A stretch of DNA of 64,000 nt from Gammaproteobacteria bacterium (GTDB lineage: Bacteria; Pseudomonadota; Gammaproteobacteria; Eutrophobiales; Eutrophobiaceae). The stretch lies in NCBI GenBank assembly GCA_965221695.1, contig OZ244905.1, positions 672,001 to 736,000 on the forward strand, written 5' to 3'. Numbering within the stretch: position 1 is the stretch's first letter; the number at the start of each line of letters is the position of its first letter. Made by a program: the position numbers and the translations under genes. The notes under the pieces were generated by a model. The model saw nothing but the letters and a program-made list of their open reading frames with translations. It was not told the DNA's origin and ran no database searches. Below are positions 7,156 through 61,578 of the stretch, piece after piece.

Positions 7156-7305
7156 GGAAGCTCCGAACAAGTACATCCTGGACTTGTCAGAGCACGCAAA
7201 ACAAAAATGCGATTTTGTTTTGCTCTCAAATTCAATGACTTACCGTCATTAAGTTTGGCGATACATCCCTGTATCGCAGGAAACTCTGACTTAATCAGAG
7301 TTTCC
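7156..7305. mobile_element. MITE-like structured repeat, copy 1 (full length, 150 bp)
   Basis: Ends GGAAGCTCCGA...TCAGAGTTTCC, flanked by TAAA on both sides; five internal hairpins; homologous to copies at 29558, 53994 and 61428. Confidence 0.8.
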
Positions 7306-7491
7306 TAAAATTATAACATATGGAGTTAGCGCCTATTACTGCTCTGTTTACAAAATGACACAAGGCCGACGCTAAGAGGAAAAATACTTGCCGAAACATT
7401 GCAGATACCTCCAATGACGCAAATAGGTTAGCCTAGTACTCTTTCAACTTGATTTTGACATGGCCAGGTTCGAGGCAAGTCCGGATTGAAA

Positions 7492-7507
7492 TAGTTGGAT
7501 CGAACTA
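7492..7507. promoter_or_regulatory. Possible GntR-type operator upstream of the lig operon
   Basis: Near-palindrome TAGTTGGATCGAACTA about 70 bp upstream of ligA. Confidence 0.3.
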
Positions 7508-7574
7508 CAGTGTGTGTGGACACAAAAGTTGTATATAATTTCTGCTCATAACCGGTCTTGAATCGGAAATAACC

Positions 7575-7976
7575 ATGAACTGGCAAAAACACGACTACGA
7601 CGACATCCCCGGCACTTACGTGTTCAACGGCGAGACTGCGCATGCGGCTTATGGTCTTAACAAGCTGCTGTTCTCCTTTAACCGGGAAGAGAACCGCAAG
7701 GACTTTGCCGCCGACCCGGGCGCGTACGCGGACAGCTTCAACCTGAGCGCGGAACAGAAGCAAGCCCTGCTGGATGATGACTACCTGGAACTGATCCGTC
7801 TGGGCGCAAACATTTATTACGTCGCCAAACTCGCGGTCCCGCGCGGGCTGACCATGCAGGATACCAGCGCTGCGTTCAAGGGCATCAGCACGGAACAGTT
7901 CAAGGCCTCGCTGGAGGCCTGGGGAGATGGCCTATCTCAACGGCTGGAGCAGGAAGGAGGGTTCTGGAATGGCTAA
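7575..7976 (+). CDS. ligA: Protocatechuate 4,5-dioxygenase alpha subunit-like
   Basis: DIPGTYVFNG...YGLNKLLFSF...LGANIYYVAKL; overlaps the beta subunit gene. Confidence 0.85.
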   Translation: MNWQKHDYDDIPGTYVFNGETAHAAYGLNKLLFSFNREENRKDFAADPGAYADSFNLSAEQKQALLDDDYLELIRLGANIYYVAKLAVPRGLTMQDTSAAFKGISTEQFKASLEAWGDGLSQRLEQEGGFWNG

Positions 7977-8811
7977 AATCGTCGGCGGCGTAACCACCTC
8001 ACATATCCCGGCCATTGGCAATGCAATGACCAACAGGCTGGAGCAGACGCCTTACTGGAAACGCTTCTTCGACGGCTATGAACCCGTGAAGGAGTGGCTG
8101 GCTGACGTGGCTCCGGATATTGCGATTGTCGTCTATAACGATCATGGGCTGAATTTCTTCCTGGACAAAATGCCCACGATGGCCCTGGGTTGCGCGGATC
8201 GTTACGAAAACGCAGATGAAGGCTGGGGGCTGCAAACCCTGGCCACGTTCACCGGGGATGCGGCGTTTTCCTGGCACCTTGCCGAGTCCCTTATCGGGCA
8301 GGAATTCGACCTGACCACTTGCCAGGAAATGTACGTGGATCATGGCTTTATCGTGCCCATGGCGCTGATGTGGCGGCACCTGCCCGAGTGGCCGGTGAAA
8401 GGGATACCGCTGGCCATCAACACGATACAACACCCTATTCCCAGCGCCCGCCGCTTGTACAAGCTCGGACGCGCCTTACGCAAGGCCATCGACTCCTACC
8501 CGGAGGACCTCAAGGTGGTTATCTTCGGTACCGGCGGCATGTCTCACCAGTTGCAGGGCGAGCGCGCCGGCATTATCGACGTGGAGTTCGACCTGAAGTG
8601 CATGGACAGCATGATATCCGACCCGGACTGGATGGCGGACCTGACCACCACGCAGATCATTGAAAAGGCCGGCACCGAAGGCGTGGAGGTAATCATGTGG
8701 ATGGTCATGCGCGGCGCGTTGAATCACGAGGTGAATGTTGTCCACAAACACTACCATGTGCCGGTCTCCAACACCGCCGCGGGCGTGCTGGTGCTGGAGG
8801 ATGCGGCCTGA
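7969..8811 (+). CDS. ligB: Protocatechuate/gallate 4,5-dioxygenase beta subunit (class III extradiol)
   Basis: [30 protein letters not shown] and GTEGVE iron-ligand motifs. Confidence 0.88.
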
Positions 8812-9494
8812 TGCCGGTGGTTGTAACGAATATTCAGCGAGCGCCGCGGGAACACGCTGCTGAATGCGCGGCGCTGGGCGTGGCCACGCTGCACGAGGCC
8901 CAGGGTCGCAAGGGCTTGTTTGCCCCGCGCCTGCGACCCATCTACCGGCCGGTAAGCGCTGCCGGAACGGCTATCACCTGCGAAGTGGCGCCGGGAGACA
9001 ACTGGATGATCCATGTCGCGGTGGAGCAATGCCAGCAAGGCGATATCCTGGTAGTGACCCCGTCCAGCCCTTGTTCGGACGGCTACTTCGGCGACCTGCT
9101 GGCCACCTCCCTGCAGGCGCAGGGCGTGGTGGGGTTGGTCATCGACGCCGGTGTGCGTGACGTTGCCACGCTCACCGAAATGCAATTCCCGGTCTGGTCC
9201 GCAGCAGTCTATGCGCAGGGCACGGTGAAAGAGACCTTGGGGAATGTGAATACGCCCATCACCTGCGCCGGCGCCCGGGTCAGTCCCGGCGATATGATCG
9301 TCGCCGATGACGATGGCGTTGTGGTCATTGCAAAAGATGAACTTGCCGGCGCACTGGAACAGGCCAGAAAACGGGTTGCAAACGAAGAGCAAAAACGTAA
9401 ACGCCTGGCCGCCGGCGAACTGGGCCTGGATATGTACGACATGCGCGCGCGCCTGGCTGAAAAAGGACTCAAATACGTAGAGACGGAGGACTGA
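8811..9494 (+). CDS. ligK: 4-carboxy-4-hydroxy-2-oxoadipate aldolase / oxaloacetate decarboxylase
   Basis: [44 protein letters not shown]. Confidence 0.9.
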
Positions 9495-9559
9495 CTTGAC
9501 GCCGGCAAGCCGAACAGGGACAGTTTCCAATCCGTCACCGGCAAACGAGGAATAGCCAG

Positions 9560-10648: not shown

Positions 10649-10683
10649 TATTGTGCCATCCTGCGGACGACTCTTGGTCTACC

Positions 10684-10710
10684 GGATTCCCGCTTGGGCG
10701 GGAATGGTAC
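10684..10710 (-). repeat. REP-like palindrome
   Basis: Reverse complement reads gtaccattcccgcccaagcgggaatcc. Confidence 0.75.
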
Positions 10711-10741
10711 GGGCAGAGACTGGTTACAAAATAACAGAACA

Positions 10742-11767: not shown

Positions 11768-11866
11768 AGATGGGCAGGATCATCAGGGGCACCTTGCAAT
11801 GCTCGACCCGGTACGCGGGAAAACTTCTGTCCCGGAAGAACCCCCTGTAATGGAGGCCTGTTGATA

Positions 11867-12751: not shown

Positions 12752-12830
12752 AGATTGACAACGCGCAAAGATGTAAATAAACCCTCATGATCAAGGTTCT
12801 GCACAAGTATGTAACTGTTGGGAATAGTAT

Positions 12831-12916
12831 GGGGGATGGTTTCGTGAGCCCCACCACAGTACCACTCCCGCGAAAGCGGGAGTCCAGTCAAATACGCTGC
12901 CGCCCAGAGGGCGGCC
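12831..12916 (+). repeat. BIME-like unit (linker + REP + GC hairpin)
   Basis: ggggatggtttcgtgagccccaccacagtaccactcccgcgaaagcgggagtccagtc...gccgcccagagggcggc is the same unit as in the 43840 array. Confidence 0.8.
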
Positions 12917-12951
12917 CTATATAATAAGCAATTCCATTAAGGAGAAAACCA

Positions 12952-13896: not shown

Positions 13897-13900
13897 CACC

Positions 13901-14914: not shown

Positions 14915-15078
14915 ACGGACCAGATACTCAGCGTCGATTTCAAATCAAATTCCGTCTGGATTGAAGACATAGCGCAACCGCATATCGTTATCAGCCCTTA
15001 CGTACTGAATTTACAGGTCTTTTGCCAAATACATGGCATCGATAGGCCGACATCGCGCCGGAGTTGTAACAGGCCTCT

Positions 15079-15682: not shown

Positions 15683-15715
15683 GACAAGCACTCTTGCACG
15701 AAATAATGCATGTTA

Positions 15716-15731
15716 AGACTGAATATAGTCT
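15716..15731. promoter_or_regulatory. Probable TA autoregulatory operator
   Basis: AGACT-gaatat-AGTCT inverted repeat about 35 bp upstream of the antitoxin start. Confidence 0.55.
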
Positions 15732-15844
15732 AAAAAAAGCTTTATGGCAAGCGCTTGTTCAACAGCGCTTGTTCAATAAATTGGGCTGGAATCCCCGCTG
15801 GGTTCAGCCATAATTACTTAAAACAGTAATACCATTCCAACGAG

Positions 15845-28829: not shown

Positions 28830-29501
28830 TTATTTACGCAACATCGCGATCACTTCCTCTGTCGTGCGCACATCCCCGAAACTCTGATAAAACGACGTCA
28901 ACCCGACCAGGTGATCTTCGTCATAGCGCGCCGCGTTGGCATCTATCACCATCACCACCTTATAGTCGAGCATCATCGCATCCCTGGCCGTGGACTCGCT
29001 GCACATATTGGTGGCAGTGCCGACAACGATGAGATTTTCTATGCCCTGCGCCTGCAGACGGTCGTGCAAATCGCTGGAACCCTGGACGAAAGGACTGAAA
29101 CGGGTTTTGTGCGCATGCTCGTCACCCTCCCTGACGTCAAGCTCCGGGTACAATTCATGCTGTTTCGTTCCCTCGGTCAGACCATCCTTGTGATTTTTGC
29201 CCTTTGCCTCGGTAAAAAAGTAGTCGTGATACAGTGACCATTTGCTCGGCGCTTCCAGGCTATCCGCCACCGTCATGACCACCCAGTACACTTTCGCGCC
29301 AACCTGCCGTACCGCATCGGCCAGCTTGTTGATATTGGGCACGATACCTTTTGCCGTATCGACCTCGGCAACATAAAAATTCTGCATATCGATAACCAGT
29401 AACGCGGTCTTTTCGGGATCGAAATGATCGAACACCTCGCGCTTGCCGCGCTTGGCCATGATCCTGTCTATAACGTATTCCGGTATTTCTACCTGGTGCA
29501 T
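28830..29501 (-). CDS. Isochorismatase-family cysteine hydrolase (amidase)
   Basis: VIDMQN, KTRFS, GTATNMCSESTARDA (Asp-Lys-Cys triad). Confidence 0.88.
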   Translation of the reverse strand: MHQVEIPEYVIDRIMAKRGKREVFDHFDPEKTALLVIDMQNFYVAEVDTAKGIVPNINKLADAVRQVGAKVYWVVMTVADSLEAPSKWSLYHDYFFTEAKGKNHKDGLTEGTKQHELYPELDVREGDEHAHKTRFSPFVQGSSDLHDRLQAQGIENLIVVGTATNMCSESTARDAMMLDYKVVMVIDANAARYDEDHLVGLTSFYQSFGDVRTTEEVIAMLRK

Positions 29502-29557
29502 TTAACTGCCTCCGACTGTGAGTTCCACCCGTTGTCAACTCGCTGTTTGAAGTTTAA

Positions 29558-29720
29558 GGAAGCTCTGAACAAGTCCATCCTGGACTTGTCAGAGCACGCA
29601 CAACAAAAATGCGATTTTTGTTGTGCTCTCTAATTCAATGACTGATCGTCATCGAATTTGGCGATACATCCCTGTATCGCAGGAACCTCTGAAATTGCCA
29701 TCCTGGTTTAGAGGGCGCCC
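29558..29720. mobile_element. MITE-like structured repeat, copy 2 (degenerate right end)
   Basis: TTAA|GGAAGCTCTGAACAAGTCCATCCTGGACTTG...GCGATACATCCCTGTATCGCAGGAACCTCTGA. Confidence 0.8.
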
Positions 29721-36589: not shown

Positions 36590-36617
36590 GGAACCTCTGA
36601 TTAAGTCAGAGCTTGCC
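36590..36617. repeat. Minimal terminal hairpin of the MITE-like family
   Basis: GGAACCTCTGA-TTAAG-TCAGAGCTTGCC. Confidence 0.65.
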
Positions 36618-36632
36618 TAAGTTAATTTCCAC

Positions 36633-43839: not shown

Positions 43840-44148
43840 TACCACTCCCACGAAAGTGGGAGTCCAGTTAAATTCTGTGTCGCCCGCAGGGCGACGCTTT
43901 TATTTACTGGATTCCCGTTTGCACGGGAATGGGATGGGGGGCGCTTCCGTGAACCCCGCCACAATAACCACTCCCGCGGAAGCGGGAGTCCAGTTAAATT
44001 CTGTGTCGCCCGGAGGGCGACCCTTTGTCTCACTGGATTCCCGTTTGCACGGGAATGGGGTGTGGGCGCTTCCGTGAACCCCGCCACCGTACCACTCCCA
44101 CGGAAGTGGGAGTCCAGTCCAATACTGTGTCGCCCGCAGGGCGACGCT
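43840..44148 (+). repeat. Tandem BIME/REPIN-like array, ~125-bp unit x 2.5
   Basis: accactccc at 43842, 43968 and 44092. Each unit = REP, gtcgcccNNNgggcgac hairpin, inverted REP, conserved linker. Confidence 0.9.
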
Positions 44149-44166
44149 TTATAATACCGCTTTGGA

Positions 44167-46404: not shown

Positions 46405-46918
46405 TGCTCTCTCCTGAATGAATAAATTCTGCAATTTCAATGGTAAAAATCCTAGGCTGATCAGTATGGTTTACATCGATTTTCTGATTACAAACGTGAA
46501 TACAAAAACAGCGCCGGATCAGAGATTCGAAACATCAGACCATCCGTTTACCAGGCAAGCGCTATAACGACTGGATAAATCTGACTTAATACTACTATCA
46601 GGCAGCCATAGTTAGCTGCAAATATTATGATACTACAAAGAGACCAGCAATGTCATATCTCTTAAGCTCGGGCCGTTACTCCCCCACCGGGATCGCTGGT
46701 TGCCGAACTGCCCCGCAACGCGATGGACAAAGACCAGAAACGCCTGCTACGAAAGCAGTATAAAGCTAGTTTCCAATGGCAGATCGTTCGCTCTTGCGCA
46801 TCGATTACTTGCGGCGCTCACCGGAATTCATAAAAATAACAACTACATGAATAACTATTGTCTGGCTGCCTGAAATATCCTTAATGATTTACGGTTAATC
46901 GGGCACAGACCCAGTGAA

Positions 46919-49336: not shown

Positions 49337-49343
49337 CCCGGTT

Positions 49344-50546
49344 ATGAATGAAGAGATTAACAAGAGTTTAAATCAGACAGTATTTGAAGCCAGGGGCTTG
49401 CCGGGCTGGTTTTTTACCTCCAAGCAGGTATTCGAAGCGGAAAAACAAGCGTTTTTTCAACGTTCCTGGCTGTGTATCGGCCTGGTAAGCGACGTTGCCG
49501 AGGCCGGTGATGTTTATCCGGTCACCATTCTCGACCAACCCCTGCTGATGGTCCGTTCCCGTGCCGGCATGTTGCGGGTATTTCATAATGTTTGCAGCCA
49601 CCGGGGTACGCAACTGGTCCAGGAACCGCGCCGGTGCGCCAACATCGTTTGTCCCTATCACGCCTGGACGTACAGCCTGGATGGCGCGTTGGACAAGACG
49701 CCGCATGTGGGCGGGCAGGATATTCACGCTTGCGCACAGGTCGACAAAACTGAACTGGGATTAACAGCAGTGCGTAGCGCCACCTGGGCAGGCCTGGTCT
49801 TTGTCAATCTCTCGGGAGACGCCGTCAGTCTTGAAGAACACATGCAGGCGTTGACGCAACGCTGGCAACGCATCGACCTGGCGCTGCTTGAAAACGTGCC
49901 TGACCTGGGCCAGCGTCCGAAATTCCAGGCCAATTGGAAACTGGTGGTGGAGAATTTTGTCGAGAGTTACCATTTGCCCTGGGTGCATAAATCCATGAAT
50001 GCCTTCAATCCTATGGGCGCACATTACCAGATACTTGGCGCAGAACATTACGTCGGTCAAGGGGTAAAAGCCTATAATCCCACGGCTGCGTACGCCGGCA
50101 AACTCAACTTTTTTCCGGCGATGAAAGACCACGAACGGCGCGCCGGCGAATCCATGTACGTCCCGACCAACCTGCTGCTGATCACGATGTCCGATTTCAC
50201 GCTTGCCAACATCATCAATCCTGTTTCCGCCGGCGTGACCAGCGAGCGCCTGGAGTTGTTCCTGATCGGGGATGCTGCAAGCAACCCGGCTCTGCAGTTT
50301 GAGCGTCAGGACCTGATGGATATCCTGGCACAGGTGAATAATGAGGATATCGGAATCTGCGAATTGGCACAAAAGGGCAGAACTTCGGAGGCGTTCAGCG
50401 GCGGCGCTTTTGCCCCCGCACATGAGCGAACGACCTTACATTTCCAACAGTTATTGGCCCACCGGATGCTGGCGGCATCGGGCAACTCAATCCGTGACCT
50501 GCCAGCGCTGTCCGTACAGGACATACATCATCCCGATATTGAATGA
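49344..50546 (+). CDS. Rieske oxygenase alpha subunit (choline monooxygenase/betaine demethylase-like)
   Basis: CSH...CPYH Rieske motif, ENFVESYHLPWVH, EDIGICE. Confidence 0.88.
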   Translation: MNEEINKSLNQTVFEARGLPGWFFTSKQVFEAEKQAFFQRSWLCIGLVSDVAEAGDVYPVTILDQPLLMVRSRAGMLRVFHNVCSHRGTQLVQEPRRCANIVCPYHAWTYSLDGALDKTPHVGGQDIHACAQVDKTELGLTAVRSATWAGLVFVNLSGDAVSLEEHMQALTQRWQRIDLALLENVPDLGQRPKFQANWKLVVENFVESYHLPWVHKSMNAFNPMGAHYQILGAEHYVGQGVKAYNPTAAYAGKLNFFPAMKDHERRAGESMYVPTNLLLITMSDFTLANIINPVSAGVTSERLELFLIGDAASNPALQFERQDLMDILAQVNNEDIGICELAQKGRTSEAFSGGAFAPAHERTTLHFQQLLAHRMLAASGNSIRDLPALSVQDIHHPDIE

Positions 50547-50609
50547 AAATGAAAAAAAGCCTGTCAACAGTGCCGGATATGACGAGTACGGCAACGGCTT
50601 TTGAATAAT

Positions 50610-52061
50610 ATGGCAGTTGCCCTCAGTTTCTGTTTTTTTCTGATGCTCATGGTGCTGGTAGGTAATCTATCCGCCAGGCGTAAACGGGAACACACTGCCG
50701 AAGATTACCTGATGGCCGGTCGTTCTCATGGCCGGTTTGTGATCGCGTTGAGCGCGGCGTCATCCGCAGTCAGCGGTTTTGTGATGATCGGGGCAGTCGG
50801 CGCCGGTTATACGATGGGGCTGGTCGCGCTGATGATGCCCCTGGGCTGGTTTATTGGCGACCTGGTTTTCTGGAAATTATTTCCCGACAGAATCAACCAA
50901 CGCGCCCGTGACCACAACTGTATTACCATTCCCGAATTTATCAGCGAGAGTACCGCGAAAAATCGGGATTCAGTGATCAGAAAATACCTGGCCACTGCAA
51001 TCATCGTATTCGTCGGCAGCTATGCCGTTGGCCAGTACCTGGCAGTGGGCAAGGCGGTCAGCGTTGTTTTTGACATTTCGATACCGGCTGCGATCCTCGC
51101 GTCCGGAGCGGTGATACTTTGCTATTCAGCGAAGGGTGGCCTGGAGTCGTCGATACCCACACAGTTTTTTCAGGCGCTGATCATGCTGTTGACTACGGTA
51201 GGCATGCTCTCGATGGCAATCTATCTTGGCGGCGGCCCCACACAGTTGTTGGCAACCCTGCAATCGGCTGACCCGCAATTGTTCTCTCTCAAAGTTGAGC
51301 AGTCTGGATGGGTGGCATTGCTGTTTTTTACTGGATTTGCGGGCGCCGCGTTCACATTCAACATGGGCACCCCCCATTTGCTGGTACGCATTATGGCCGC
51401 GAAAAGTCCGCAGGAAGCGGTAAAAAGCCGTTGGATCTACATGGGCTTCATGCAGGTGACCTGGTTGTGCATGAGTCTTTTTGGTCTGCTGATGAAAGTG
51501 TTATTGCCGGAGATTGCCGATCCGGAGCAAGCATTGCCGGTGTTTGCGCAGGATTACCTGCACCCCGTATTGGCGGGCGCGGTGATGGCAGGGATTTTTG
51601 CCGCGGTGGCATCCACACTTGATGGGCAAATTCTGGTGGTCTCAAGCTCTTTTGCCGTGGATGTATCCCCCGGTTTTTACCGTCGTATGACCCGGCGTTT
51701 GGGCGTGCGTTACCAGTCACTGGTAACCATTCTGGTGTCCATTGCCGTAGCAGTTGTTGCCATCCTGATTAAAGACAGTACCAATGTGTTTACGATTGTT
51801 GTCTTATCCGCATCAGCATTGGGCGGCACCATTGGTTTGGCATTTTTCATTACCCTGATGCGTTGGCGGACTTCAGCCTATGCGCTGGTTGCCGGACTGG
51901 TCGCGGCTATTCTGACGGCATTGGCATGGCGTCATTATGGTCTGAGCAACTATGTGCTGGAAGCGGCGCCCAGTTTTATTGTGGGCCTGCTCACCCACCA
52001 GGTGATCATAACAACTCTCAAATCAGACCCTGACAAAGCTACCGCAAACGTGGCTGATTAG
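50610..52061 (+). CDS. Sodium:solute (PutP-like) symporter
   Basis: DYLMAGRS, ALSAASSAVSG, PHLLVRIMA, FAAVASTLD. Confidence 0.88.
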   Translation: MAVALSFCFFLMLMVLVGNLSARRKREHTAEDYLMAGRSHGRFVIALSAASSAVSGFVMIGAVGAGYTMGLVALMMPLGWFIGDLVFWKLFPDRINQRARDHNCITIPEFISESTAKNRDSVIRKYLATAIIVFVGSYAVGQYLAVGKAVSVVFDISIPAAILASGAVILCYSAKGGLESSIPTQFFQALIMLLTTVGMLSMAIYLGGGPTQLLATLQSADPQLFSLKVEQSGWVALLFFTGFAGAAFTFNMGTPHLLVRIMAAKSPQEAVKSRWIYMGFMQVTWLCMSLFGLLMKVLLPEIADPEQALPVFAQDYLHPVLAGAVMAGIFAAVASTLDGQILVVSSSFAVDVSPGFYRRMTRRLGVRYQSLVTILVSIAVAVVAILIKDSTNVFTIVVLSASALGGTIGLAFFITLMRWRTSAYALVAGLVAAILTALAWRHYGLSNYVLEAAPSFIVGLLTHQVIITTLKSDPDKATANVAD

Positions 52062-53133
52062 TCCTTGCATTATTTCGCAATTGTTTTGGCGTCACCCCGA
52101 AGAAGTGTTTGACTGCCGCGGTGAAACTGGTCTGGTATTCATAGCCGACGCTCTGGGCCACATCCGTTATCGGCATTTCCGTAGTCTGTAACAACTCCAG
52201 CGCTTTTTGCATACGGTGATAGTTGCGATACTCGTGGATAGTGGCGCCGAATAACAGTTTGAAACCCTGCTTGAACTTGGTCTCATTCAGTCCGACCCGC
52301 CGGGCCAGTTCCCTGATTGTCGGTGGCGGACTGAAGTGTGTTGACAATATATCCCTTGCTTCCTGCAGGCGGGTTTTTTCATAGGAAGACAAGGGCTTGA
52401 GGTTGACATCGCCGTCGATATTTGACGTGCACAGAAACTGCAAGGCATCACATAACAAGTGATATGCCTTCGATTTTGCATGCAACAGGTGAAACCTGCT
52501 GGTGAAGTCGGAGCGAAGAAAACTCGTGATGGAAAACGCCAGGGCCGGATTCAGGTTGATGATTTCATACTCGATCCTGTCGTTTTTACCGTCCAGGAAA
52601 GCACTGATAATGCCCGGCATAACCTTTCTGTCAATACCCAACTGGCGCAGGAATAACGCCGGTTTGCAATAGAGCGTAAACGAGGATTCATGCGCGCCGC
52701 CCACGATCCATTCCTTGCAGCTAAGCCCCGGGGGCAGGTTCCAGATGAGCAATGACGGCCCGCGCACGCTCAACCGGTTTTCAGCGTCAAGCTCCAGTAA
52801 CAGTTCACCGGTGACCTTGAAGTGAAATTCCAGGAACCCCTCACCCAAGACCGTCTCTACCCGGGTTTCCCGGTACTGGAAGTCGGTTGCAATCAGATAC
52901 AGGTCCGGCGAGAGGTGAATGAATTCCCAGTAACCGTAACCCTCCTCGGGCGCAAGCGGGAGCCGGCTGCTGTAAATGACGTTATCATTGTCTTCTACCT
53001 GCGTAACAGCAGGCGCGCGCTTTCCTGAACGGATACACTCGAATGTCTTGACCAGCGAGTTGCTGTCGCCACTCAGCAAGGTCCTCGCCGAAGACGGGTA
53101 ACTCTTCTCAGTGTTGATCCGGATTTCCTGCAT
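52039..53133 (-). CDS. AraC-family transcriptional regulator
   Basis: C-terminal LARRVGLNETKFKQGFK...VAQSVGY...FTAAVKHFFGVTP; start estimated. Confidence 0.88.
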   Translation of the reverse strand: MQEIRINTEKSYPSSARTLLSGDSNSLVKTFECIRSGKRAPAVTQVEDNDNVIYSSRLPLAPEEGYGYWEFIHLSPDLYLIATDFQYRETRVETVLGEGFLEFHFKVTGELLLELDAENRLSVRGPSLLIWNLPPGLSCKEWIVGGAHESSFTLYCKPALFLRQLGIDRKVMPGIISAFLDGKNDRIEYEIINLNPALAFSITSFLRSDFTSRFHLLHAKSKAYHLLCDALQFLCTSNIDGDVNLKPLSSYEKTRLQEARDILSTHFSPPPTIRELARRVGLNETKFKQGFKLLFGATIHEYRNYHRMQKALELLQTTEMPITDVAQSVGYEYQTSFTAAVKHFFGVTPKQLRNNARTNQPRLR

Positions 53134-53417
53134 AATGTGATAGTTTCTCGGTATCCGGCAAATTGATCGGGAAATCGCACTGTCTAAACTACCCGTACAA
53201 ATGACAGACGTCAAATATTCCGTTGGTAATACAGCAGGCCAACCCTGGCAACAAGCAATGGACACTGTCTTTCTTTATTTTATGATTTATGAACGCAATA
53301 TATGATTACATTTGCTATAGTTTCATTAACATTTGGAGATTGATTTTCCCAGTATATTAGGGAACCTCTGTAGTTCCATACTGGAATTTAATCTGTCTCT
53401 ATTTCCAAGTTTTATAC

Positions 53418-53993
53418 GTGAGGGTGGATAAGGTAGTGAGCAACAACGCAACAGTGAAACGATTATCTCTTGGTCCGGTTATCCATCTTGCTTTTGTCGT
53501 GGAAAACCTTGAGCAAGCTATCAACAACTGGGTACAAGTGGCTGGCGCCGGACCGTTTTTTGTTAAGGAAGATATTGAAATGCACGATGTATATTATCGG
53601 GGTAACCCTGTCTCACCCGATTTCAGGATGCGCTTTGCCATAGGATATCTAGGTGAGATGGGGATAGAACTGATCCAACAACTTACTGACACTCCTTTTG
53701 TTTACAAGGAACTGATTGATAAAAGCGGTGGTGGCTGGCATCACATCTGGCTGAACGCGGACGATTATCATGCCGAAGTGAAAAGACTGGCATCATTGGG
53801 TGGAGAAATAGCAATGGAAGGCGCTTTTAATGATGGAAGTAAATTCTGCTACGTTGATACAACTGCGACTATCGGGGGCATGGTCGAGTTAATGCAGATG
53901 CCAGAACCAATTATTGATGCGATGCATATAATGAAATCCGCACATAAGGAATGGGACGGCCTAGACTCCGCAAGGCCATTCCCGGAAATCTAA
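53418..53993 (+). CDS. VOC (glyoxalase/methylmalonyl-CoA epimerase-like) family protein
   Basis: HLAFVV, IELIQQ, GGWHHI, YVDT...MVEL. Confidence 0.85.
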   Translation: MRVDKVVSNNATVKRLSLGPVIHLAFVVENLEQAINNWVQVAGAGPFFVKEDIEMHDVYYRGNPVSPDFRMRFAIGYLGEMGIELIQQLTDTPFVYKELIDKSGGGWHHIWLNADDYHAEVKRLASLGGEIAMEGAFNDGSKFCYVDTTATIGGMVELMQMPEPIIDAMHIMKSAHKEWDGLDSARPFPEI

Positions 53994-54092
53994 AGAAGCT
54001 CTGACAAGTCCATCCTGGACCTGCCTGAGCACGCAAAACAAAAAAGTGATTGTTGTTTTGCTCTAAAAATCAATGACTCAATCAGAGTTTCC
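53994..54092. mobile_element. MITE-like structured repeat, copy 3 (internally deleted)
   Basis: CTAA|AGAAGCTCTGACAAGTCCATCCTGGAC...TCAGAGTTTCC|TTAA; lacks the fourth hairpin. Confidence 0.75.
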
Positions 54093-54108
54093 TTAACAGT
54101 TAGCCGGA

Positions 54109-56400
54109 TCAAAAATCGACCTGTAGACTGACCCCCCAATGCCGACGTTGGCTCCACCTTGGCGAAAAAGCCAAAGCAGCATTAGGATCCCCCGAAGCAA
54201 ACCAGAAACCGCCCAGGTCGTTGCTGTACAGGATGTATCTTTCATCCGTCAGGTTCTTACCCCAGACAGATAATGTCCACCGCTCGTCCTTGGTCTGGTA
54301 TTCTATTCGCCCATTGAGAATCCCGTCATTACTCGTTTTAAATGCCGGATCATTGGATATTTCCGTAAAATAATTACTCTTGAACGATACATCGCCGCTG
54401 ATGCTCAATGTTCCACCATGTGCCAACGGCTGGGAATAACTCCCCCAGATAGCGCCCGCATGTTTAGGTGTCAGCGCTGCCCGGTTGCCACCAAAAGCGG
54501 GGTCATCTTTTCCTACCTCACTGTCGGAAAATGCATAATTAAATCCGATATTCAAGTTATCAGAAACCAAAAACAGCCCATCTACTTCCAAGCCATAAAT
54601 TTCCATATCCTCGATGTTAACGGTTGTTGCGGCGCCTGTTGGCAATACAAACGCATTTTGTGCGCCGTCATATTTTGAGTAGTAAAATGATGCGTTCAGA
54701 AGCGCCCTGTTGTCAACAAAATCGGATTTAAAACCAGCCTCATAATTCCAGACATACTCCGGGTCCAGTGGCGTTGAAAGCGTTGCGGCGCCTCGGGTTC
54801 GTGTGGTGGCAAGGTCTGCAAATATCCCTATACCATGGTTGAATGAGCCGCTCTTGAAACCGCGTGAGACCGTTGCATAGGCCATCAGGTCATCACTGAA
54901 ACGATAATCTATGCTTGCTTTTGGCGTGAACGCATCCCAACTTTCACTTAGATCAGTTTCGGGATAAACAGAAAATATCAAGTTGGGATCACCAAAACTG
55001 GAGCCAGTCCCCTCTTTCTTATCCTTTGTCCAACGGCCACCCAGTGTAATACCCATCTGCTCCGTAAGGTAATAGGTGACTTGTCCGAATACAGCGAAAC
55101 TCTCAGTGTCAATCTGCATATCATGTTCTGCAGTCACCGTGGATATGCCGGGTGTTCCAGGAAGAGACGGGCTGAGGCTCAGGTAAAATTGTTGTAAAGA
55201 ATGAAACCTCGTTCCCGGGAAAAAGGTGAATCTTATAGGTTCATATTCAAAATTATCCTGGAAGAAATAATATACACCCAGTGTAAAGTCCCAGCGGTCA
55301 ATATCCGTGGAGACCAGTCGAAGTTCTTGCGAAATTTGCTCAACATCATTATATGGATCATAGTCAACCGCGCCGGGGTACGGAAGACCAACCTGGTCTA
55401 CTCTGCCAAGCTGACTTTCCATCGATCTATAACCTGTTACGGACACGATGTCGGCCCAGTCCATGCTCCAGGTCAGTTTTGAACTTAACGTAAAGTATTC
55501 CGCATCAATGCCACCATCAAATGGCGATGCCGTGGTATTTTCATTATTATCCGGAACAAAATCAGCAAGTTCCGGAACAGCCGTGATGGGCGGGCCTGTA
55601 TAGTCTCTGGTAGGGCCACCGGAATCATCCAATGAATAACTCAGACTCAAAGTCCACTCCAACATATCTGAAGGCTGATACAGTAACTTGCCGCGAATAC
55701 TTTTTTTATCAACAGACTCCGCTCCCTTTCCAGTAAACGTATTTCGCAAGAAGCCATCTGCGTTTTTTGAACTGGCGGCAACAGAAGCAAACAAATTTTC
55801 AGCTACGGGACCGGCCACATATCCATCAAAGTCAATCCTGTCAAAATTCCCCACTGTAGCTCTAACACTGCCCTCAAAAACTTCGGAGGGTTTTTTTGTG
55901 ACAACATTAATTGCCCCACCAACCACATTGCGTCCAAACAATGTGCCTTGCGGCCCGCGTAAAACTTCCAGCCTCTCCACATCGAAAAGATCAGGATTCC
56001 AATCCATTGAACCACCGTAATATATCTCGTCTACAAACAAAGCGACAGACTGGTCCCCACCCGGTGTTGTATTGTTTGATGAAGAGCCTCTCAAAGCAGG
56101 TGTGACTCTTTGATGACTTGTCGAGTTTATATTAAAGGTTGGCACAATAGTGGATAGATCCTGCACCGTACTTATACGTTGCTTTTCAAGCTGGACCCCA
56201 CTGAATACGGCAACTGATGAGGGCACATCCTGAATATTTTCTTCCCGTTTTTGCGCAGTAACTACCAGTTCCTCAATGACTACGTTTTGAGCATAAGCGG
56301 TGTTGATAAGCATAATTGCCAGCAAATACGAAATCAGTAGTGAACTGTAGCGCCAGAGATGCTTGGTTTGTTCGTTGGTTGTAACCATGAATACCCCCAA
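54109..56400 (-). CDS. TonB-dependent receptor
   Basis: EELVVTAQKREE, RLEVLRGPQGTLFGRN, C-terminal VDF. Confidence 0.93.
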   Translation of the reverse strand: MGVFMVTTNEQTKHLWRYSSLLISYLLAIMLINTAYAQNVVIEELVVTAQKREENIQDVPSSVAVFSGVQLEKQRISTVQDLSTIVPTFNINSTSHQRVTPALRGSSSNNTTPGGDQSVALFVDEIYYGGSMDWNPDLFDVERLEVLRGPQGTLFGRNVVGGAINVVTKKPSEVFEGSVRATVGNFDRIDFDGYVAGPVAENLFASVAASSKNADGFLRNTFTGKGAESVDKKSIRGKLLYQPSDMLEWTLSLSYSLDDSGGPTRDYTGPPITAVPELADFVPDNNENTTASPFDGGIDAEYFTLSSKLTWSMDWADIVSVTGYRSMESQLGRVDQVGLPYPGAVDYDPYNDVEQISQELRLVSTDIDRWDFTLGVYYFFQDNFEYEPIRFTFFPGTRFHSLQQFYLSLSPSLPGTPGISTVTAEHDMQIDTESFAVFGQVTYYLTEQMGITLGGRWTKDKKEGTGSSFGDPNLIFSVYPETDLSESWDAFTPKASIDYRFSDDLMAYATVSRGFKSGSFNHGIGIFADLATTRTRGAATLSTPLDPEYVWNYEAGFKSDFVDNRALLNASFYYSKYDGAQNAFVLPTGAATTVNIEDMEIYGLEVDGLFLVSDNLNIGFNYAFSDSEVGKDDPAFGGNRAALTPKHAGAIWGSYSQPLAHGGTLSISGDVSFKSNYFTEISNDPAFKTSNDGILNGRIEYQTKDERWTLSVWGKNLTDERYILYSNDLGGFWFASGDPNAALAFSPRWSQRRHWGVSLQVDF

Positions 56401-56577
56401 TCAGGTAGATTCGTCGAAGAGTCCGCATTGAATAAGTTAATGTAATGGTAATAATAACATATTAATTGTTACAGTCAAGATTTTTTGTTCTGGGATTTGA
56501 TGGCCTGAATTGTTGGGTAACTGCTGGCCGACTATGTGTTACAGCCTGGAAAGAATGGGGGGGTCGGGACGGTTATA

Positions 56578-57693
56578 TCATCGCCTGGTGACACTGACTC
56601 CCTGATGTATCATTGATTGCACTGCCCCTTTATGAAACGAATAAGGTGTCATATCCGGTATTGAGCTTGCTTGATTAAGCAACTGCACCTGTTCATGGTC
56701 AAGTTCAAACTCCAGCGCTAACAGGTTTTCATTTAATTGTTTAATCGTCCTGGCGCCAATGACGGCTGAGGTCACGGTCGTGTGTTTGATCAGCCAGTTC
56801 AGCGCGATTTGCGACGGAGTTTGTCCTTTTTCCTCTGCGATTGATATGAGTTGGTTTACAATGTTCACACTCCTTTTTGCTAGCGGGTCAACCCCCGGGT
56901 CTGTCACCCAGGTTTTGGTTAATCTGCCTTCACCTGTAATCCCCCCTTTCCCATCCGGCCGATATTTTCCTGATAACAACCCGTTTGCCAGCGGACTCCA
57001 CGCATTTAAAGCCACACCCAGGTGCGCGCAGGCTTCGACGTATTCATATTCCGCATCCCGGACGACCAGAGAATATTCATTTTGTATTGCGGCCGGCCGT
57101 TCATAGTTATTGCATTCTGCCAAAGTGCAGGCGCGTGCCAAGTACCAGGCAGGACAATTGGAAAAACCATAATGACGAATCTTACCTTGCGATACCAGAT
57201 TATTCAGCGTGCTGACGACTTCTTCAACCGGAGTTACGGTATCCCAATGATGCATCATGTAAAGGTCAAGGTAGTCTGTTCCAAATCTCTGCAAGGAGGC
57301 CTCAAGCGCCTGAATAATATGCTTTCTCCCGTTTCCTCCGGCATTCGGATCACCCGGACATGTCGATTGGGTTCCTTTTGATGAAAGAACGACCTGTTCT
57401 CTTACCTTCAATTCTCTTACAAACTTGCCCAGCCAGACCTCGCTTTCACCGTTTTGATATACATCGGCAGTGTCAAGGAAATTTCCACCGGCATCAATAT
57501 ATCGTTCCAAAATCTGACGCGCCTCTTGTTCCCCTGATGACCAGTCCTTACCCCATGCGGAACCGAACGTGCCGGCGCCAAATGCAAGCGGAGATACCCG
57601 CAAGCCGGTCCTGCCTAACAACCGGTATGAAGTGAGGGACTGAATTCGATTCCCTAAATTCATCCCGGTATCATAGGGGTTTACATCTGCCAT
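56578..57693 (-). CDS. Aldo/keto reductase
   Basis: GRTGLRVSPL, FLDTADVY, DLYMMH, WSPLANGLLSGKY. Confidence 0.9.
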   Translation of the reverse strand: MADVNPYDTGMNLGNRIQSLTSYRLLGRTGLRVSPLAFGAGTFGSAWGKDWSSGEQEARQILERYIDAGGNFLDTADVYQNGESEVWLGKFVRELKVREQVVLSSKGTQSTCPGDPNAGGNGRKHIIQALEASLQRFGTDYLDLYMMHHWDTVTPVEEVVSTLNNLVSQGKIRHYGFSNCPAWYLARACTLAECNNYERPAAIQNEYSLVVRDAEYEYVEACAHLGVALNAWSPLANGLLSGKYRPDGKGGITGEGRLTKTWVTDPGVDPLAKRSVNIVNQLISIAEEKGQTPSQIALNWLIKHTTVTSAVIGARTIKQLNENLLALEFELDHEQVQLLNQASSIPDMTPYSFHKGAVQSMIHQGVSVTRR

Positions 57694-57741
57694 TTTGGCC
57701 CCATTACTGATGTGTCAGACAGGTTATGTTTCGCTAAACCG

Positions 57742-59232
57742 TTAAGAAGACAGGTCAAGCCAGATTGTTTTGGTTTGCGTGTAACTTTCCAGAGCCTCAC
57801 CACCTTGCTCCCTGCCGATTCCAGACTGCTTGAACCCACCAAACGGCGCAGAAGGATCATAACGATGCCAGCAATTTAGCCATAAGGTTCCTGCTTTGAT
57901 TAACTGAGCCGCCCGAATCGCCTTTGCCGCATCTCGTGTCTGTACACCTGCCGCTAATCCATACGGTGAATCATTGGCGATTCGAATCGCGTCATCAAAA
58001 TCATCGAAAGCCACCGCTGTGAGTACCGGTCCGAATATTTCTTCTCGAGCAATGGTAACGTCGTTTGATGGCGCTGCAAATAAGGTCGGTTTAATAAAAT
58101 AACCTTTACCGTTAACTTTTGTTGTTTCGCCTCCGGTCAAGGCATCGCCGCATTCTTCCCTTCCCCTTTCGAGAAAAGAAATGACATTGTTATATTCGAT
58201 TTCGCCGGCCATGGGACCATAGTCTGAGCTGAGGTCCAGCGGATCTCCTACTTGAATAGACTCGGCCAGATTCACCATCTTATCCATAAATTTGTCGAAA
58301 ATTGAACGTTCGACAAGCAGACGAGAACCTGCTACACATACCTCTCCTTTATTCCAGTAAATTCCCAGATAAGCATTGAATGCCGCCTTATCGAGGTCTG
58401 CATCGGCAAATACAATATTGGGTGATTTGCCACCCAATTCAGCAGTGATATGTTTAAGCGTGCCTGCCCCGTCCCGTATGATCTGCTTGCCGGTTTCGGT
58501 TGAGCCTGTCACCGCGATTTTATCAACACCCGGATGTGTCACCAGCGCTTTTCCTATTACACTGCCTTGCCCGGTCAGCAGATTATAGACTCCATCAGGG
58601 ACACCGGCCTCAAGCATAATCTCTGCCAATGAAATCGCGGTCAGAGGTGTGGTGGTAGCGGGTTTGTGAATAATGCAATTCCCGGCCGCAAATGCGGGGG
58701 CAATTTTACTGACAGACAAAATAAGCGGGAAGTTGAATGGTGTAATTGCCGCAACCACCCCGAGAGGTTCACGCCGTGTAAATGCCAAGCTTGCCTGATG
58801 CCCTTCAGTCGGTTTGACAGCGCCCTCTATCTTGGTTGCGAAACCGGCGAAATACCTAAACAGTTTTGCGCAGAACGGAACATCAATCCCAACAGCATCC
58901 TTATACAATTTCCCCATGTCCAACGCCTCACGGTATGCCAACTCGTTTGCCCGTTCCTCCATAAGATCCGCAATCCGATTCATAATTATCGCCCGTTCAG
59001 AACCAGGCATTTTCCCCCACGGCCCATGGTCGAACGCTTTTCGCGCGCTATTCACCGCATCGTCCACATCGGAACGGGTAGCTTTTGCCACCTCGGTAAT
59101 AATTTCCTCATTCGTGGGGTTAAATGTGGGGAAAGCGCTACCATCCGATGACTCTCGCCATTTTCCATCAATATATAATTGACCTGGATTAACTTCCACG
59201 GGTTGGGGTGAGGGGACCTGTAACGGCAGCAT
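57742..59232 (-). CDS. Aldehyde dehydrogenase
   Basis: PFNFP, ELGGKSP, GEVCVAGSR (catalytic Cys), EEIFGPV, PFGGFKQSG. Confidence 0.93.
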   Translation of the reverse strand: MLPLQVPSPQPVEVNPGQLYIDGKWRESSDGSAFPTFNPTNEEIITEVAKATRSDVDDAVNSARKAFDHGPWGKMPGSERAIIMNRIADLMEERANELAYREALDMGKLYKDAVGIDVPFCAKLFRYFAGFATKIEGAVKPTEGHQASLAFTRREPLGVVAAITPFNFPLILSVSKIAPAFAAGNCIIHKPATTTPLTAISLAEIMLEAGVPDGVYNLLTGQGSVIGKALVTHPGVDKIAVTGSTETGKQIIRDGAGTLKHITAELGGKSPNIVFADADLDKAAFNAYLGIYWNKGEVCVAGSRLLVERSIFDKFMDKMVNLAESIQVGDPLDLSSDYGPMAGEIEYNNVISFLERGREECGDALTGGETTKVNGKGYFIKPTLFAAPSNDVTIAREEIFGPVLTAVAFDDFDDAIRIANDSPYGLAAGVQTRDAAKAIRAAQLIKAGTLWLNCWHRYDPSAPFGGFKQSGIGREQGGEALESYTQTKTIWLDLSS

Positions 59233-59340
59233 TGCAATTCCTCCTGGTAAATGTATTACCGCATGATGCGGGATATCACGTTATGGGCATGGGCGCTATC
59301 TTGGTCTAACTGTATCGGGTCTGACGGCGCTCAAGGCTTA

Positions 59341-59365
59341 ATATGTTATTGTTAATATAACATAT
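59341..59365. promoter_or_regulatory. Perfect 9-bp inverted repeat operator candidate
   Basis: ATATGTTAT-N7-ATAACATAT; related site at 56438-56462. Confidence 0.55.
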
Positions 59366-59422
59366 GTATTTTAAATTGATACATCCCGCCACACAAATTT
59401 TTGAGGATAGCCAAATTGGCAT

Positions 59423-59734
59423 TTAATCTGCTACTTCATTGAGCAGCAGCGGATCACAAAATTGCGGGAATCTGGGATGGGCGACCAACGGTTCCAGGTC
59501 GATTTTGCTCATATACTTATAAAGCGGCATTTTCCTGATTTGTTCCATTACCTCTTCATGACTATCCATGTTCCAGATTGCTACAACACCTTTGGCATTG
59601 GCCTTTCTCCATATGCCGAGCATCTTTCCATTTTTAACCATGGAAGTTGTTTGTTCCCATTCCCGAGGAAAAATTTCCTCTAGCGGTTCGGTAATTAGAT
59701 TGTAGTCCAGATCAACATTAAGAAGATAAATCAT
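59423..59734 (-). CDS. Muconolactone delta-isomerase (CatC)-family protein
   Basis: GKMLGIWR...VAIWNMDSHEEV...MPLYKYM...PLVAHP. Confidence 0.75.
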   Translation of the reverse strand: MIYLLNVDLDYNLITEPLEEIFPREWEQTTSMVKNGKMLGIWRKANAKGVVAIWNMDSHEEVMEQIRKMPLYKYMSKIDLEPLVAHPRFPQFCDPLLLNEVAD

Positions 59735-59831
59735 CAGTGAAACTCCTGCCTGGTAGAGAGTCAGGATTACATTGGCACTTCGAGTTGGACATATTGTCCT
59801 TCAAACATTTATTGGCTCCTGTACAGAAAAA

Positions 59832-60611
59832 TTACTCTGCAGAAAATGCGCCCTCAACATACTGTTCGGGATTCCATACATTAAATCCGCCATCCACATC
59901 GATAAATACACCTGTCATATAGCGATTTGTCATACAGAACAGGTAGCTCGGCGCTATATCTCTTGCCGTAGCGACAAATTTAACCGGCAGTTTTTGTTCA
60001 AAGTGTTTAATCATGCCTTCAAGAGCAGCATCGGGGACATTATCGTAGGTCTCAGTACCCTGGGTGAGACCTGGAGAGATAACGTTGATACGCTTAGGGC
60101 CTATTTCTACTGCGACTTTGCGCGCAAAGGCCTCTACCGCGCTGTTATTTCCAGCCAGCAGGCTGTGGTTCGGGACATAGCCTCGAGCAACGACGCCCGA
60201 GGTCAGCACTATGGAACCATGCGAAGACAAGTGCGGAACAGCGAACTTTGTGCATATAAACTTAGCCCAGAATCGGGACTTGAAGTAGATTGCTGCCTGA
60301 TCCAGGTCTATTTCCTCCAGTAAGCGCATCGCGCCGCTTAACGCGTCCCCTGAGTCATGGGTGGTAACAACCATGTGATCAATAGCGCCAAGTTTACTCA
60401 ACATCGCCTGGACTGAAGCCGGATCGGTAGCATCTACCTGTGCGATGGATGTCTTTCCTCCCAGCCGTGTTTTTGCAGCTTCGAGCTTTTCCATATTACG
60501 GCTTGCAATAATGACCTCCGCGCCTTGTGCCAGTGCAGCCTCAGCCACGGCATAGCCTATGCCACTTCTGCCACCGACGACTAACACTCGCTGATTTTTT
60601 AAATTACTCAT
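59832..60611 (-). CDS. Short-chain dehydrogenase/reductase (atypical active site)
   Basis: VGGRSGIG, RINVISPG, VDGG; no YxxxK. Confidence 0.85.
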   Translation of the reverse strand: MSNLKNQRVLVVGGRSGIGYAVAEAALAQGAEVIIASRNMEKLEAAKTRLGGKTSIAQVDATDPASVQAMLSKLGAIDHMVVTTHDSGDALSGAMRLLEEIDLDQAAIYFKSRFWAKFICTKFAVPHLSSHGSIVLTSGVVARGYVPNHSLLAGNNSAVEAFARKVAVEIGPKRINVISPGLTQGTETYDNVPDAALEGMIKHFEQKLPVKFVATARDIAPSYLFCMTNRYMTGVFIDVDGGFNVWNPEQYVEGAFSAE

Positions 60612-60670
60612 TCTATGTACGCTCCCGTTGGTTGTTACGATTGATATCAAATGCCTGGATTGTGTGTCGG

Positions 60671-61408
60671 TTACCAGACATTGTTCCCGCCATCGATGTC
60701 AACCCACGCGCCGGACAATTGTCGTGAGGTCATTGCAAACAAATAGGCTTCAGCAACGTCTGCCGGTGTGGCCACTTCCTTTACAGGCAGTTTTTCCGCG
60801 AAATGCTGAAAGTAAACATCACGGTCTTTTTTTGGAATACCATCAAAAGCTGGTGTGTCAGTCAGACTGGGGACTATAGCGTTTACTCGCACAGGACCAA
60901 ATTCGTGGGCTGCTTTTTTCACGAAACCTTCAACAGCACAGTTAACAGGACCCATGATGCCGTGTTTTTCCAACCATATACGACTGGCGCAACCGGAAGT
61001 CAACGTGATAGAACCTCGTTTGTTGAGGTGCGGAAGCGCATAGCGGCTGGCTAACACAGGTCCCCAGAATTTTGCCTCCATAAATTCACGGGAGGCCGTA
61101 ATATCAAGATCAACGATATCACGGAACACGCCGGGCACAACTTCGGATGAGGTGCCATGAGATGTGCATACCAGGTGGTCAAACTGACCTATTTGTGCAA
61201 AAAAGTCGGGCAGAATATCGAAATTTGTGACATCAAGTTGTTTGTATGAAGCATTCTCGCCAACTTCTGCGGCCGCCCGCTTCATGCGTGCAATGTTGCG
61301 GCTGGCGATAATAACAGACGCCCCCTGTTGATGAGCCAGGTTGGCGACAGCAAGGCCAATGCCGCTGCTACCACCTATGACAACAACTTTTTGATTTTGA
61401 AGTTTCAT
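60671..61408 (-). CDS. Short-chain dehydrogenase/reductase (atypical active site), paralog
   Basis: IGGSSGIG, RVNAIVP, IDGG; no YxxxK. Confidence 0.85.
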   Translation of the reverse strand: MKLQNQKVVVIGGSSGIGLAVANLAHQQGASVIIASRNIARMKRAAAEVGENASYKQLDVTNFDILPDFFAQIGQFDHLVCTSHGTSSEVVPGVFRDIVDLDITASREFMEAKFWGPVLASRYALPHLNKRGSITLTSGCASRIWLEKHGIMGPVNCAVEGFVKKAAHEFGPVRVNAIVPSLTDTPAFDGIPKKDRDVYFQHFAEKLPVKEVATPADVAEAYLFAMTSRQLSGAWVDIDGGNNVW

Positions 61409-61427
61409 AGTTCTACGATTGAATTTA

Positions 61428-61578
61428 AGAAGCTCTGAACAAGTCCATCCTGGACTTGTCAGAGCACGGAAAACAAAAATGTGATTTTTGTTTTCCTCAC
61501 AAAATCAATGCCTTACAGTCATTGATTTTGACGATACATCCTTGTATCGTAGGAAACTCTGACTTAATCAGAGTTTAC
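61428..61578. mobile_element. MITE-like structured repeat, copy 4 (full length)
   Basis: AGAAGCTCTGAACAAGTCCATCCTGGACTTG...ACGATACATCCTTGTATCGT...TCAGAGTTTAC|TTAA. Confidence 0.8.

Follow-up and report, generated by a model that had tools for sequence, protein, structure and literature searches.

The window analysed here is a 64,000-nucleotide stretch of a bacterium of the Gammaproteobacteria (assembly GCA_965221695.1, contig OZ244905.1, positions 672,001 to 736,000 of the forward strand); its source genome, G000, is a single contig of 3.54 Mb with 55% G+C. Four copies of a dispersed repeat of about 150 bp (c1-c4) lie in the window beside genes that Pfam assigns to the HTHP, isochorismatase, SDR, cupin, glyoxalase and TonB-dependent receptor families. 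The full repeat is a row of five hairpins, A to E, and its B and E loops carry GGA on one strand, which we call the GGA strand. A first-pass annotation of the DNA described four such copies, and we re-found all of them with their GGA hairpins at the positions claimed; in each of them the GGA strand is the minus strand. We show below that the repeat is an IS5-family transposable element of the miniature inverted-repeat type (MITE), and that its hairpins B-E are selected in single-stranded form, on the GGA strand; from their sequence, these hairpins may bind the RNA-binding protein CsrA.

The GGA strand of c1 is sense to the HTHP gene, whose Shine-Dalgarno region AGGAGGA also holds a GGA, and that of c4 is sense to both of its minus-strand neighbours, the cupin and SDR genes. 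Re-measured distances (Table 1) agree with the annotation in placing c1, c2 and c4 between 20 and 57 nt upstream of co-oriented start codons. In the internally deleted c3 the left end runs straight into the 3' half of hairpin C, then come D and E, and hairpin B is absent; this copy sits between convergent genes, 13 nt past the TGA of the TonB-dependent receptor gene. The apex CAGGAUG, which the annotation had also claimed for all four copies, is that of hairpin E. The window contains three instances of the 12-mer RTACARGGATGT, where 100 shuffles predict 0.02, and the fold z-scores against shuffles were -11.0 for the GGA strand and -12.4 for its complement. Because the copies of the whole genome are divided between the strands (126 plus, 118 minus), one shared strand for the four window copies is unremarkable.

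Table 1. Coordinates of the repeat copies, their hairpins and neighbouring genes (window positions, unless contig C1 of G000 is named; SELEX, systematic evolution of ligands by exponential enrichment)
Feature	Position	Strand	Details
HTHP-family gene	6833..7123	-	Pfam; ATG at 7123, ~32 nt downstream of c1
c1, full element	7152..7309	-	core 7156-7305; TTTA duplication at 7152-7155 and 7306-7309
c1 hairpin E, apex CAGGAUG	7161..7192	-	GGA 7176-7178
c1 hairpin B, GCGAUACAGGGAUGUAUCGC	7258..7277	-	GGA 7266-7268; exact SELEX 12-mer 7263-7274
Isochorismatase-family (cysteine hydrolase) gene	28830..29501	-	Pfam; start 57 nt downstream of c2
c2, hairpins B-E and right end	29554..29714 (about)	-	core end 29558; TTAA at 29554-29557
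c2 hairpin E	29563..29594	-	GGA 29578-29580
c2 hairpin B, GCGAUACAGGGAUGUAUCGC	29661..29680	-	GGA 29669-29671; SELEX 12-mer 29666-29677
c2 extra E-like hairpin, in place of hairpin A	29686-29714	-	third GGA loop, GGA 29701-29703
Solo hairpin-A mini-element, 27-bp remnant	~36590..36620	-	inverted ends head to head: GCAAGCTCTGA-CTTAA-TCAGAGGTTCC
Glyoxalase-family gene	53418-53993	+	TAA stop in c3 flank
c3, internally deleted	53991..54096	-	core 53995-54092; GGA of hairpin E 54013-54015
SDR gene	60671..61408	-	Pfam; start 20 nt downstream of c4
c4, full element	61425..61582	-	core 61429-61578; TTAA at 61425-61428 and 61579-61582
c4 hairpin E	61433..61464	-	GGA 61448-61450
c4 hairpin B, ACGAUACAAGGAUGUAUCGU	61531..61550	-	GGA 61539-61541; SELEX 12-mer 61536-61547
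Cupin ORF (open reading frame)	61568-61996	-	ends inside c4
Second repeat of G000 (C1)	39516-39587, 2083235-2083306, 2798610-2798681, 2832398-2832469		~190-nt repeat
Second repeat of G000 (C1), rest	2919444-2919515, 3195502-3195573, 3247046-3247117		~190-nt repeat

We followed the element through G000 with an nhmmer profile of 159 positions, and the 383 matches merged into 244 loci, 96 of which cover at least 140 positions of the model; hairpin B is present in 134 of the loci and hairpin E in 158. The consensus is a non-coding core of 151 bp with 11-bp inverted ends, GGAACCTCTGA...TCAGAGTTTCC. Among the 60 end-complete copies listed (of 82), we counted by eye 45 whose two flanking 4-mers are identical, and in 19 cases the 4-mer is non-palindromic (CTAA, TTAG, TTTA, TAAG and others), so the flanking repeat is direct, that is, a 4-bp target duplication at YTAR. 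The wider target is palindromic, with flanks of the form TAAN-TTAA-NTTA.

No PF01609 (DDE_Tnp_1) gene was found in G000; such genes are present in 16 of 23 genomes of the genus. Among the 30 such loci listed across the genus, the two from the congener G022 hold 1.15-kb copies of an insertion sequence (IS) with the ends GGAACCTCTGATCAAGCCC and with YTAR flanks like those of the MITE. Its transposase combines DUF772 with DDE_Tnp_1, the architecture of IS5, and the reading frames are broken in both copies. The MITE ends, GGAACCTCTGA and TCAGAG(T/C)TTCC, match the IS ends, GGAACCTC(C/T)GATCAAGCCC and GGGCTTGATCAGAGGTTC(T/C), and hairpin A of the MITE is the left and right ends of this IS joined head to head; 27-bp solo versions of hairpin A, with target duplications of their own, also occur in G000. 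Among 22 congeners the MITE was found in 20, at copy numbers that run across the genus from 0 to more than 100. At the site of c2, G008 carries only a short E-like remnant and G021 is empty, an insertion polymorphism between species. A search of a plasmid collection gave no match to the element. These observations bear out the mobility proposed by the first-pass annotation: the element is a non-autonomous transposon, a MITE of the IS5 family.

Several further observations concern the insertion sites and the parent IS. The stop codon of the glyoxalase-family gene falls within the 4-bp flank TTTA of c3 (53991-53994), in keeping with stop codons being frequent YTAR targets. The cupin ORF enters the left end of c4 by 11 nt and ends at the TGA of the element's CTCTGA, so that the insertion of c4 provides the last codons and the stop of the cupin gene. 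The two IS copies of G022 (L122:1033-2182 and L138:933-2083) lie 4.5 kb apart, and their flanking 4-mers are swapped, CTAA...TTAA in one and TTAA...CTAA in the other. In G000, pairs of terminal inverted repeats 0.6-3 kb apart were considered as a parent IS and rejected, as they enclose ordinary genes between two solo hairpin-A mini-elements. Contigs assembled from the short reads of four DNA runs break at repeats (44001-64000); apparent contig joints across c4 have sides of 21 letters, look like assembly-graph effects of the palindromic ends and were not used.

By eye, hairpins B-E have no evident likeness to the G022 IS, and we refer to them as the cargo. In an alignment of 37 diverse copies from several genera, RNAalifold found compensatory changes in 22 of 32 pairs. 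Under the five-hairpin structure, 32 of 59 pairs were changed on both sides and 90% of cells were paired; none of 500 shuffles reached this score, and slid controls were 33-46% paired. The stem of hairpin B (helix 3) covaries in seven of its eight pairs, and its GGA lies in the loop in both the minimum-free-energy and the centroid folds.

We then searched genome samples with R2, a covariance model of hairpins B-E. The sample searches scored 23 candidates per genome (150 in another search), so copy numbers from them are lower bounds. In a sample of the class with one genome per family, R2 recovered the whole module in 30 of 151 genomes; G000 and the unpublished G165 are among the 30, and without these two the count is 28 of 149. 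In a sample of the phylum the module was present in 26 of 151 genomes, 25 of them in other class(es), with one family contributing 21 of its 36 genomes. The named hosts in a pattern scan were uncultured, metagenome-assembled genomes of Gammaproteobacteria. The fold of the cargo is thus conserved across more than 30 families and two classes, and in low-copy genomes the same B-E design stands on different terminal sequences.

Stems differ wholly between lineages while the GGA loops stay. Loop B keeps the form A-N-GGA-N in 86 of 87 G000 copies and, in five other genomes, in 23 of 24 copies listed out of 26; it does so too in 11 of 11 representatives of other families, six of six low-copy genomes and five of five genomes of another class. 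In the last three sets loop E has GGA in 10 of 11, four of six and five of five. The loops of hairpins C and D are less conserved than those of B and E.

Variants of the element and related repeats were also seen. About 15 G000 loci (for example C1:511896-511987 and 2057539-2057628) form a short subfamily of ~95 bp with a common breakpoint, in which A, B and E are kept and C and D are missing. A short palindrome, GTCCCGTA...TACGGGA, is nested in the loops of hairpin D or E in genomes other than G000 (L051:5963-6167, L055:6164-6340 and L114:1452-1632). G000 contains a second repeat of ~190 nt in at least seven copies (Table 1), with three further GGA-type hairpins (loops CUGGA and ACGGAU, stem CAUCC/GGAUG) and with SELEX-like hairpins on the opposite strand of its upstream parts. 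A long form of the MITE carries extra GGA hairpins in a 72-nt insert, which is the module of this second repeat nested between B and C in six copies; since the insert comes from another repeat family, these hairpins are not an independent gain, and we did not count them as independent support. By a loose measure, GGA or TCC stands near the loop in 46% of the perfect hairpins of MITE loci; the share is 27% for the remaining non-coding DNA and 22% for coding sequence.

Elsewhere in the window, positions 43980-44160 hold a mosaic of other hairpin repeats (ATTCCCG...CGGGAAT, ACTCCC...GGGAGT and GTGTCGCCC...GGGCGAC), which has very high depth in the short-read contigs and represents a different, abundant repeat family. 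Genes at 53400-64000 score far lower on the genome's codon-usage model than those of the rest of the window, and this part may be foreign DNA.

The CsrA consensus selected by SELEX is RUACARGGAUGU, in which ACA and GGA are invariant and GGA lies in a hairpin loop (PMC4347634). Hairpin B carries this consensus exactly in c1, c2 and c4, so the exact CsrA-consensus hairpins of the first-pass annotation hold. In all of G000 we counted 103 exact matches, 100 of them in MITE loci, where composition predicts 1.3 matches. Of the 747 CANGGANG motifs in non-coding DNA, 254 fall in MITE loci, which make up ~9% of that DNA. G000 itself encodes CsrA: the gene matches PF02599 at 90 bits, stands in the order alaS-lysC-csrA-tRNA-Ser, and its product has a canonical N-terminal domain. 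The protein (C1:1649914-1650189) is 91 amino acids long, with a canonical core of 55 residues followed by an acidic tail of ~30 residues. A fragment of the MITE, comprising hairpins D-E and antisense to csrA, lies just past the tRNA-Ser gene downstream of csrA.

To ask which strand matters, we compared the wobble pairs that stem variants create on the GGA strand (G:T) and on its complement (A:C). In hairpins B-E, shared variant types were G:T in 36 cases and A:C in 15 (p 0.005; counted in 155 full copies as variant types, not as phylogenetically independent events), and among variants seen at least four times the counts were 17 and 3. The IS-derived hairpin A had 7 G:T and 10 A:C shared types in the same copies. 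The asymmetry of shared variants indicates that the lineages that spread tolerated wobbles on the GGA strand only. Full copies divide 49 to 47 between the replication strands, and loci with B or E 94 to 91; this lack of bias speaks against a mechanism that acts on lagging-strand single-stranded DNA and for RNA. The cumulative GC skew of G000 has its minimum at ~1.84 Mb and its maximum at ~0.38 Mb, which gives unequal replichores of about 2.08 and 1.45 Mb. We conclude that selection acts on the cargo B-E in single-stranded form, the strand concerned being the GGA strand.

The orientation of copies relative to genes was also biased. At G000 loci with B or E between genes of the same direction, as drawn from rough ORF-based gene calls, 30 had a sense GGA strand and 63 an antisense one (p 0.0008), and the antisense excess appeared in both replichore classes (45 against 23, and 18 against 7). 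In other genomes, scored on 8-kb loci, 8 were sense and 22 antisense, or 8 and 15 without the nearest relative. Next to gene starts we found 69 sense and 97 antisense loci, of which 43 and 64 lie within 100 nt. The bias must arise after insertion because the target is palindromic. Three sources for it were considered and set aside: position, as distances to flanking genes are the same for sense and antisense copies; replication strand, with 49 against 47; and an internal terminator or promoter, none being predicted. Simple consensus scans, a weak negative, found neither promoter-like nor terminator-like sites inside the copies. The orientation bias is tied to transcription and not to replication. 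Given the genome-wide antisense excess, the four same-sense copies of the window are not representative.

Our preferred explanation, in which we place somewhat better than even confidence, is an IS5-type MITE with a cargo selected at the level of RNA, whose GGA strand would bind CsrA when transcribed and whose copies in leaders are incidental. The cargo displays two apical A-N-GGA-N loops, and, judged from sequence, loop B would be a perfect high-affinity hairpin for CsrA/RsmA. RNA made from the GGA strand would be bound by CsrA, and either one CsrA dimer would bridge B and E or each hairpin would pair with a nearby Shine-Dalgarno GGA. Sense insertions in transcripts would be costly and partly purged, which would leave an antisense excess of two to one. 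The sense copies that survive, among them the three leader or intercistronic copies of the window and about 43 loci within 100 nt upstream of a start codon, would then be incidental targets or decoys of CsrA rather than a purpose-built wiring device.

A number of observations weigh against this explanation. The CsrA role of the element is plausible on the strength of its sequence, and the benefit of CsrA sites to a selfish DNA transposon is unexplained. Both strands of the element fold equally well, and the counts of wobble types and of orientations carry the limits given above. Stem variants confined to a single copy are symmetric, G:T 21 and A:C 24 in G000 and 22 and 19 elsewhere, so individual copies are under no detectable purifying selection and decay neutrally. 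Where the remaining spacer is shorter than 100 nt, 18 copies are sense and 25 antisense, and where it is at least 100 nt, 12 and 38; the excess is not stronger in short spacers, contrary to a simple purging from operons. Within transcription units the GGA strand is the less frequent orientation, so most copies would expose UCC rather than GGA loops in mRNAs. Some distant copies have no GGA in hairpin E. Co-occurrence in the phylum sample speaks for the explanation, with csrA present in 25 of 25 element-bearing genomes and in 81 of 125 others (Fisher p 6.5e-5, ignoring relatedness), but the association comes largely from one family (21 of the 25 genomes), where csrA accompanies the element in 21 of 21 genomes and is found in 7 of 15 without it, again ignoring relatedness. 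The class sample shows no enrichment, with csrA in 24 of 29 genomes with the element and in 98 of 121 without it (tallies that include the unpublished G165 and G063); the five element-bearing genomes with no csrA match are all 62-90% complete.

Several of these points would be expected if the element were a purely selfish MITE, whose hairpins serve the element or make it tolerable and in which CsrA plays no part. The compact fold of a co-transcribed insert might avoid polarity or attack by RNase, as proposed for ERIC/Correia-type repeats, or the GGA loops might be read by something other than CsrA, or be kept for structural or Shine-Dalgarno-like reasons. Every defining feature of a MITE is present, the strands fold equally well, copies stand in both orientations at the same distances from genes, recent mutations are symmetric, csrA is not enriched with the element in the class sample, and G000 harbours other families of hairpin repeats. 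However, this account leaves unexplained why GGA and the preceding ACA are fixed while the loop flanks and all stems change over two classes, why hairpin B is the 12-nt SELEX consensus, with 100 of 103 matches in the element where 1.3 were expected, and why wobbles are tolerated on one strand in B-E and not in hairpin A. We therefore regard it as possible and rather doubtful.

The first-pass annotation had proposed a mobile cassette that wires genes into Csr control through their leaders, or a distributed CsrA sponge; on such a reading the cassette would be selected, or the sponge maintained, to the host's advantage. The mobile element and the match to the CsrA consensus stand; the placement in leaders does not. 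Three of the four window copies and 43 G000 loci do have a sense copy a short way upstream of a start (20-57 nt and at most 100 nt, respectively), MITE loci are rich in CANGGANG motifs (254 of 747), G000 has no match to CsrB, RsmZ or RsmY, and the short subfamily retains B and E while losing C and D. Against this, the orientation bias that the annotation suggested examining exists and runs the wrong way, with 30 sense and 63 antisense loci in G000, 8 and 22 in other genomes, and antisense majorities at gene starts (69 against 97, and 43 against 64 within 100 nt); leaders are not preferred over gene ends, neither promoter nor terminator was found in the element by the scans above, copy number varies from 0 to more than 100 among congeners, and single copies bear no sign of purifying selection. 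We consider such a host-serving device improbable. That the hairpins act as single-stranded DNA for an enzyme of the HUH/RAYT or another type, as in REP, IS200/IS605-type or dRS3/NTS-type repeats, is highly improbable: the wobble asymmetry is the mark of selection on a single strand, in principle perhaps one of DNA, and G000 is rich in other hairpin repeats, but elements that use lagging-strand single-stranded DNA show a replication-strand bias that is missing here (49 against 47 full copies, 94 against 91 loci), copies of both replichore classes are biased in step with transcription, and the ends, target duplication and parent IS are all of the DDE (double-strand) type.

Returning to the explanation by an RNA-selected cargo, its consequences would reach beyond this genome. 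Tentatively, and as a minority expectation, a transposon superfamily may long have carried a CsrA-type RNA module over at least two proteobacterial classes, scattering high-affinity sites. If so, transposition would rewire which mRNAs are seen by Csr and add a mobile decoy pool of variable copy number, with a cargo selected as RNA in a vehicle that moves as DNA. Should CsrA bind the module, a global post-transcriptional regulon would gain new members directly from a mobile element, the availability of CsrA would be tied to a copy-number-variable repeat in lineages with no recognised decoy of the CsrB/Rsm type, and the element would clearly exemplify a DNA transposon whose cargo is selected at the RNA level. 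Should binding fail, it would still be a well-defined structured repeat of very wide occurrence, absent from Rfam, and an entry there would be worthwhile to prevent repeated mis-annotation.

The comparison with known RNA families upheld the novelty of the element, as no full-length match to a family was found. A search of the window with Rfam gave no Csr/Rsm family at gathering score, and CsrB, RsmZ and RsmY (RF00018, RF00166 and RF00195) had no matches in G000; hairpin B aligns with one hairpin of the RsmV model over 17 nt at 13.1 bits, against a gathering score of 100. A simple consensus scan for the GacA box met only chance matches with two mismatches in MITE loci, and scans of G000 for GacA boxes and for GGA-dense non-coding windows yielded no convincing Csr/Rsm small RNA candidate, which does not exclude that one exists. 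The TwoAYGGAY covariance model gave no match to c1 (E up to 10), to ten loci that span diverse subfamilies (E up to 0.1) or to the whole of G000 (E up to 1), and control genomes gave nothing either. The literature search, which covered the main texts of papers, turned up none in which CsrA or RsmA is connected to MITEs or to REP elements.

Each of the known systems shares part of the design. Like the element, the Csr/Rsm decoy small RNAs (CsrB, CsrC and RsmX/Y/Z/V) carry several GGA hairpins of the CANGGANG type; unlike them, the element is mobile and multi-copy, occurs in both orientations with two or three GGA loops per copy, and has no promoter, GacA/UvrY box or terminator of its own that simple consensus scans could find. 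The Correia (NEMIS/CREE) elements of Neisseria and the ERIC/IRU elements of enterobacteria are likewise MITE-like and abundant between genes; they measure 100-160 bp, are transcribed together with their neighbours, form RNA hairpins and affect mRNAs in an orientation-dependent manner. They form one long foldback, whereas the element lines up five separate hairpins and conserves GGA in its apical loops.

TwoAYGGAY (RF01731) was listed as a probable RNA by Weinberg in 2010 (PMC2864571), and in the account of Gardner and Eldai (2015; PMC4333381) it is predicted, without validation, to bind CsrA. It too is repeat-like and structured, with two GGA-loop hairpins and a proposed sequestration of CsrA. 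Instead of its AYGGAY loops, the G000 element has A-A/G-GGA-U in loop B and AGGAU in loop E, and its five hairpins lie within IS5-type ends; loop variants AUGGAU and AUGGAC are present in other genomes. With IS5-family MITEs the element shares a short, non-coding body dispersed by the hundreds, ends that match an IS and a 4-bp duplication at YTAR, and it differs from them in that its cargo is apparently not an IS remnant, has a conserved, covarying four-hairpin fold, and is joined to different terminal sequences in different lineages. The element combines two known kinds, an IS5 MITE and a repeat that is predicted to bind CsrA.

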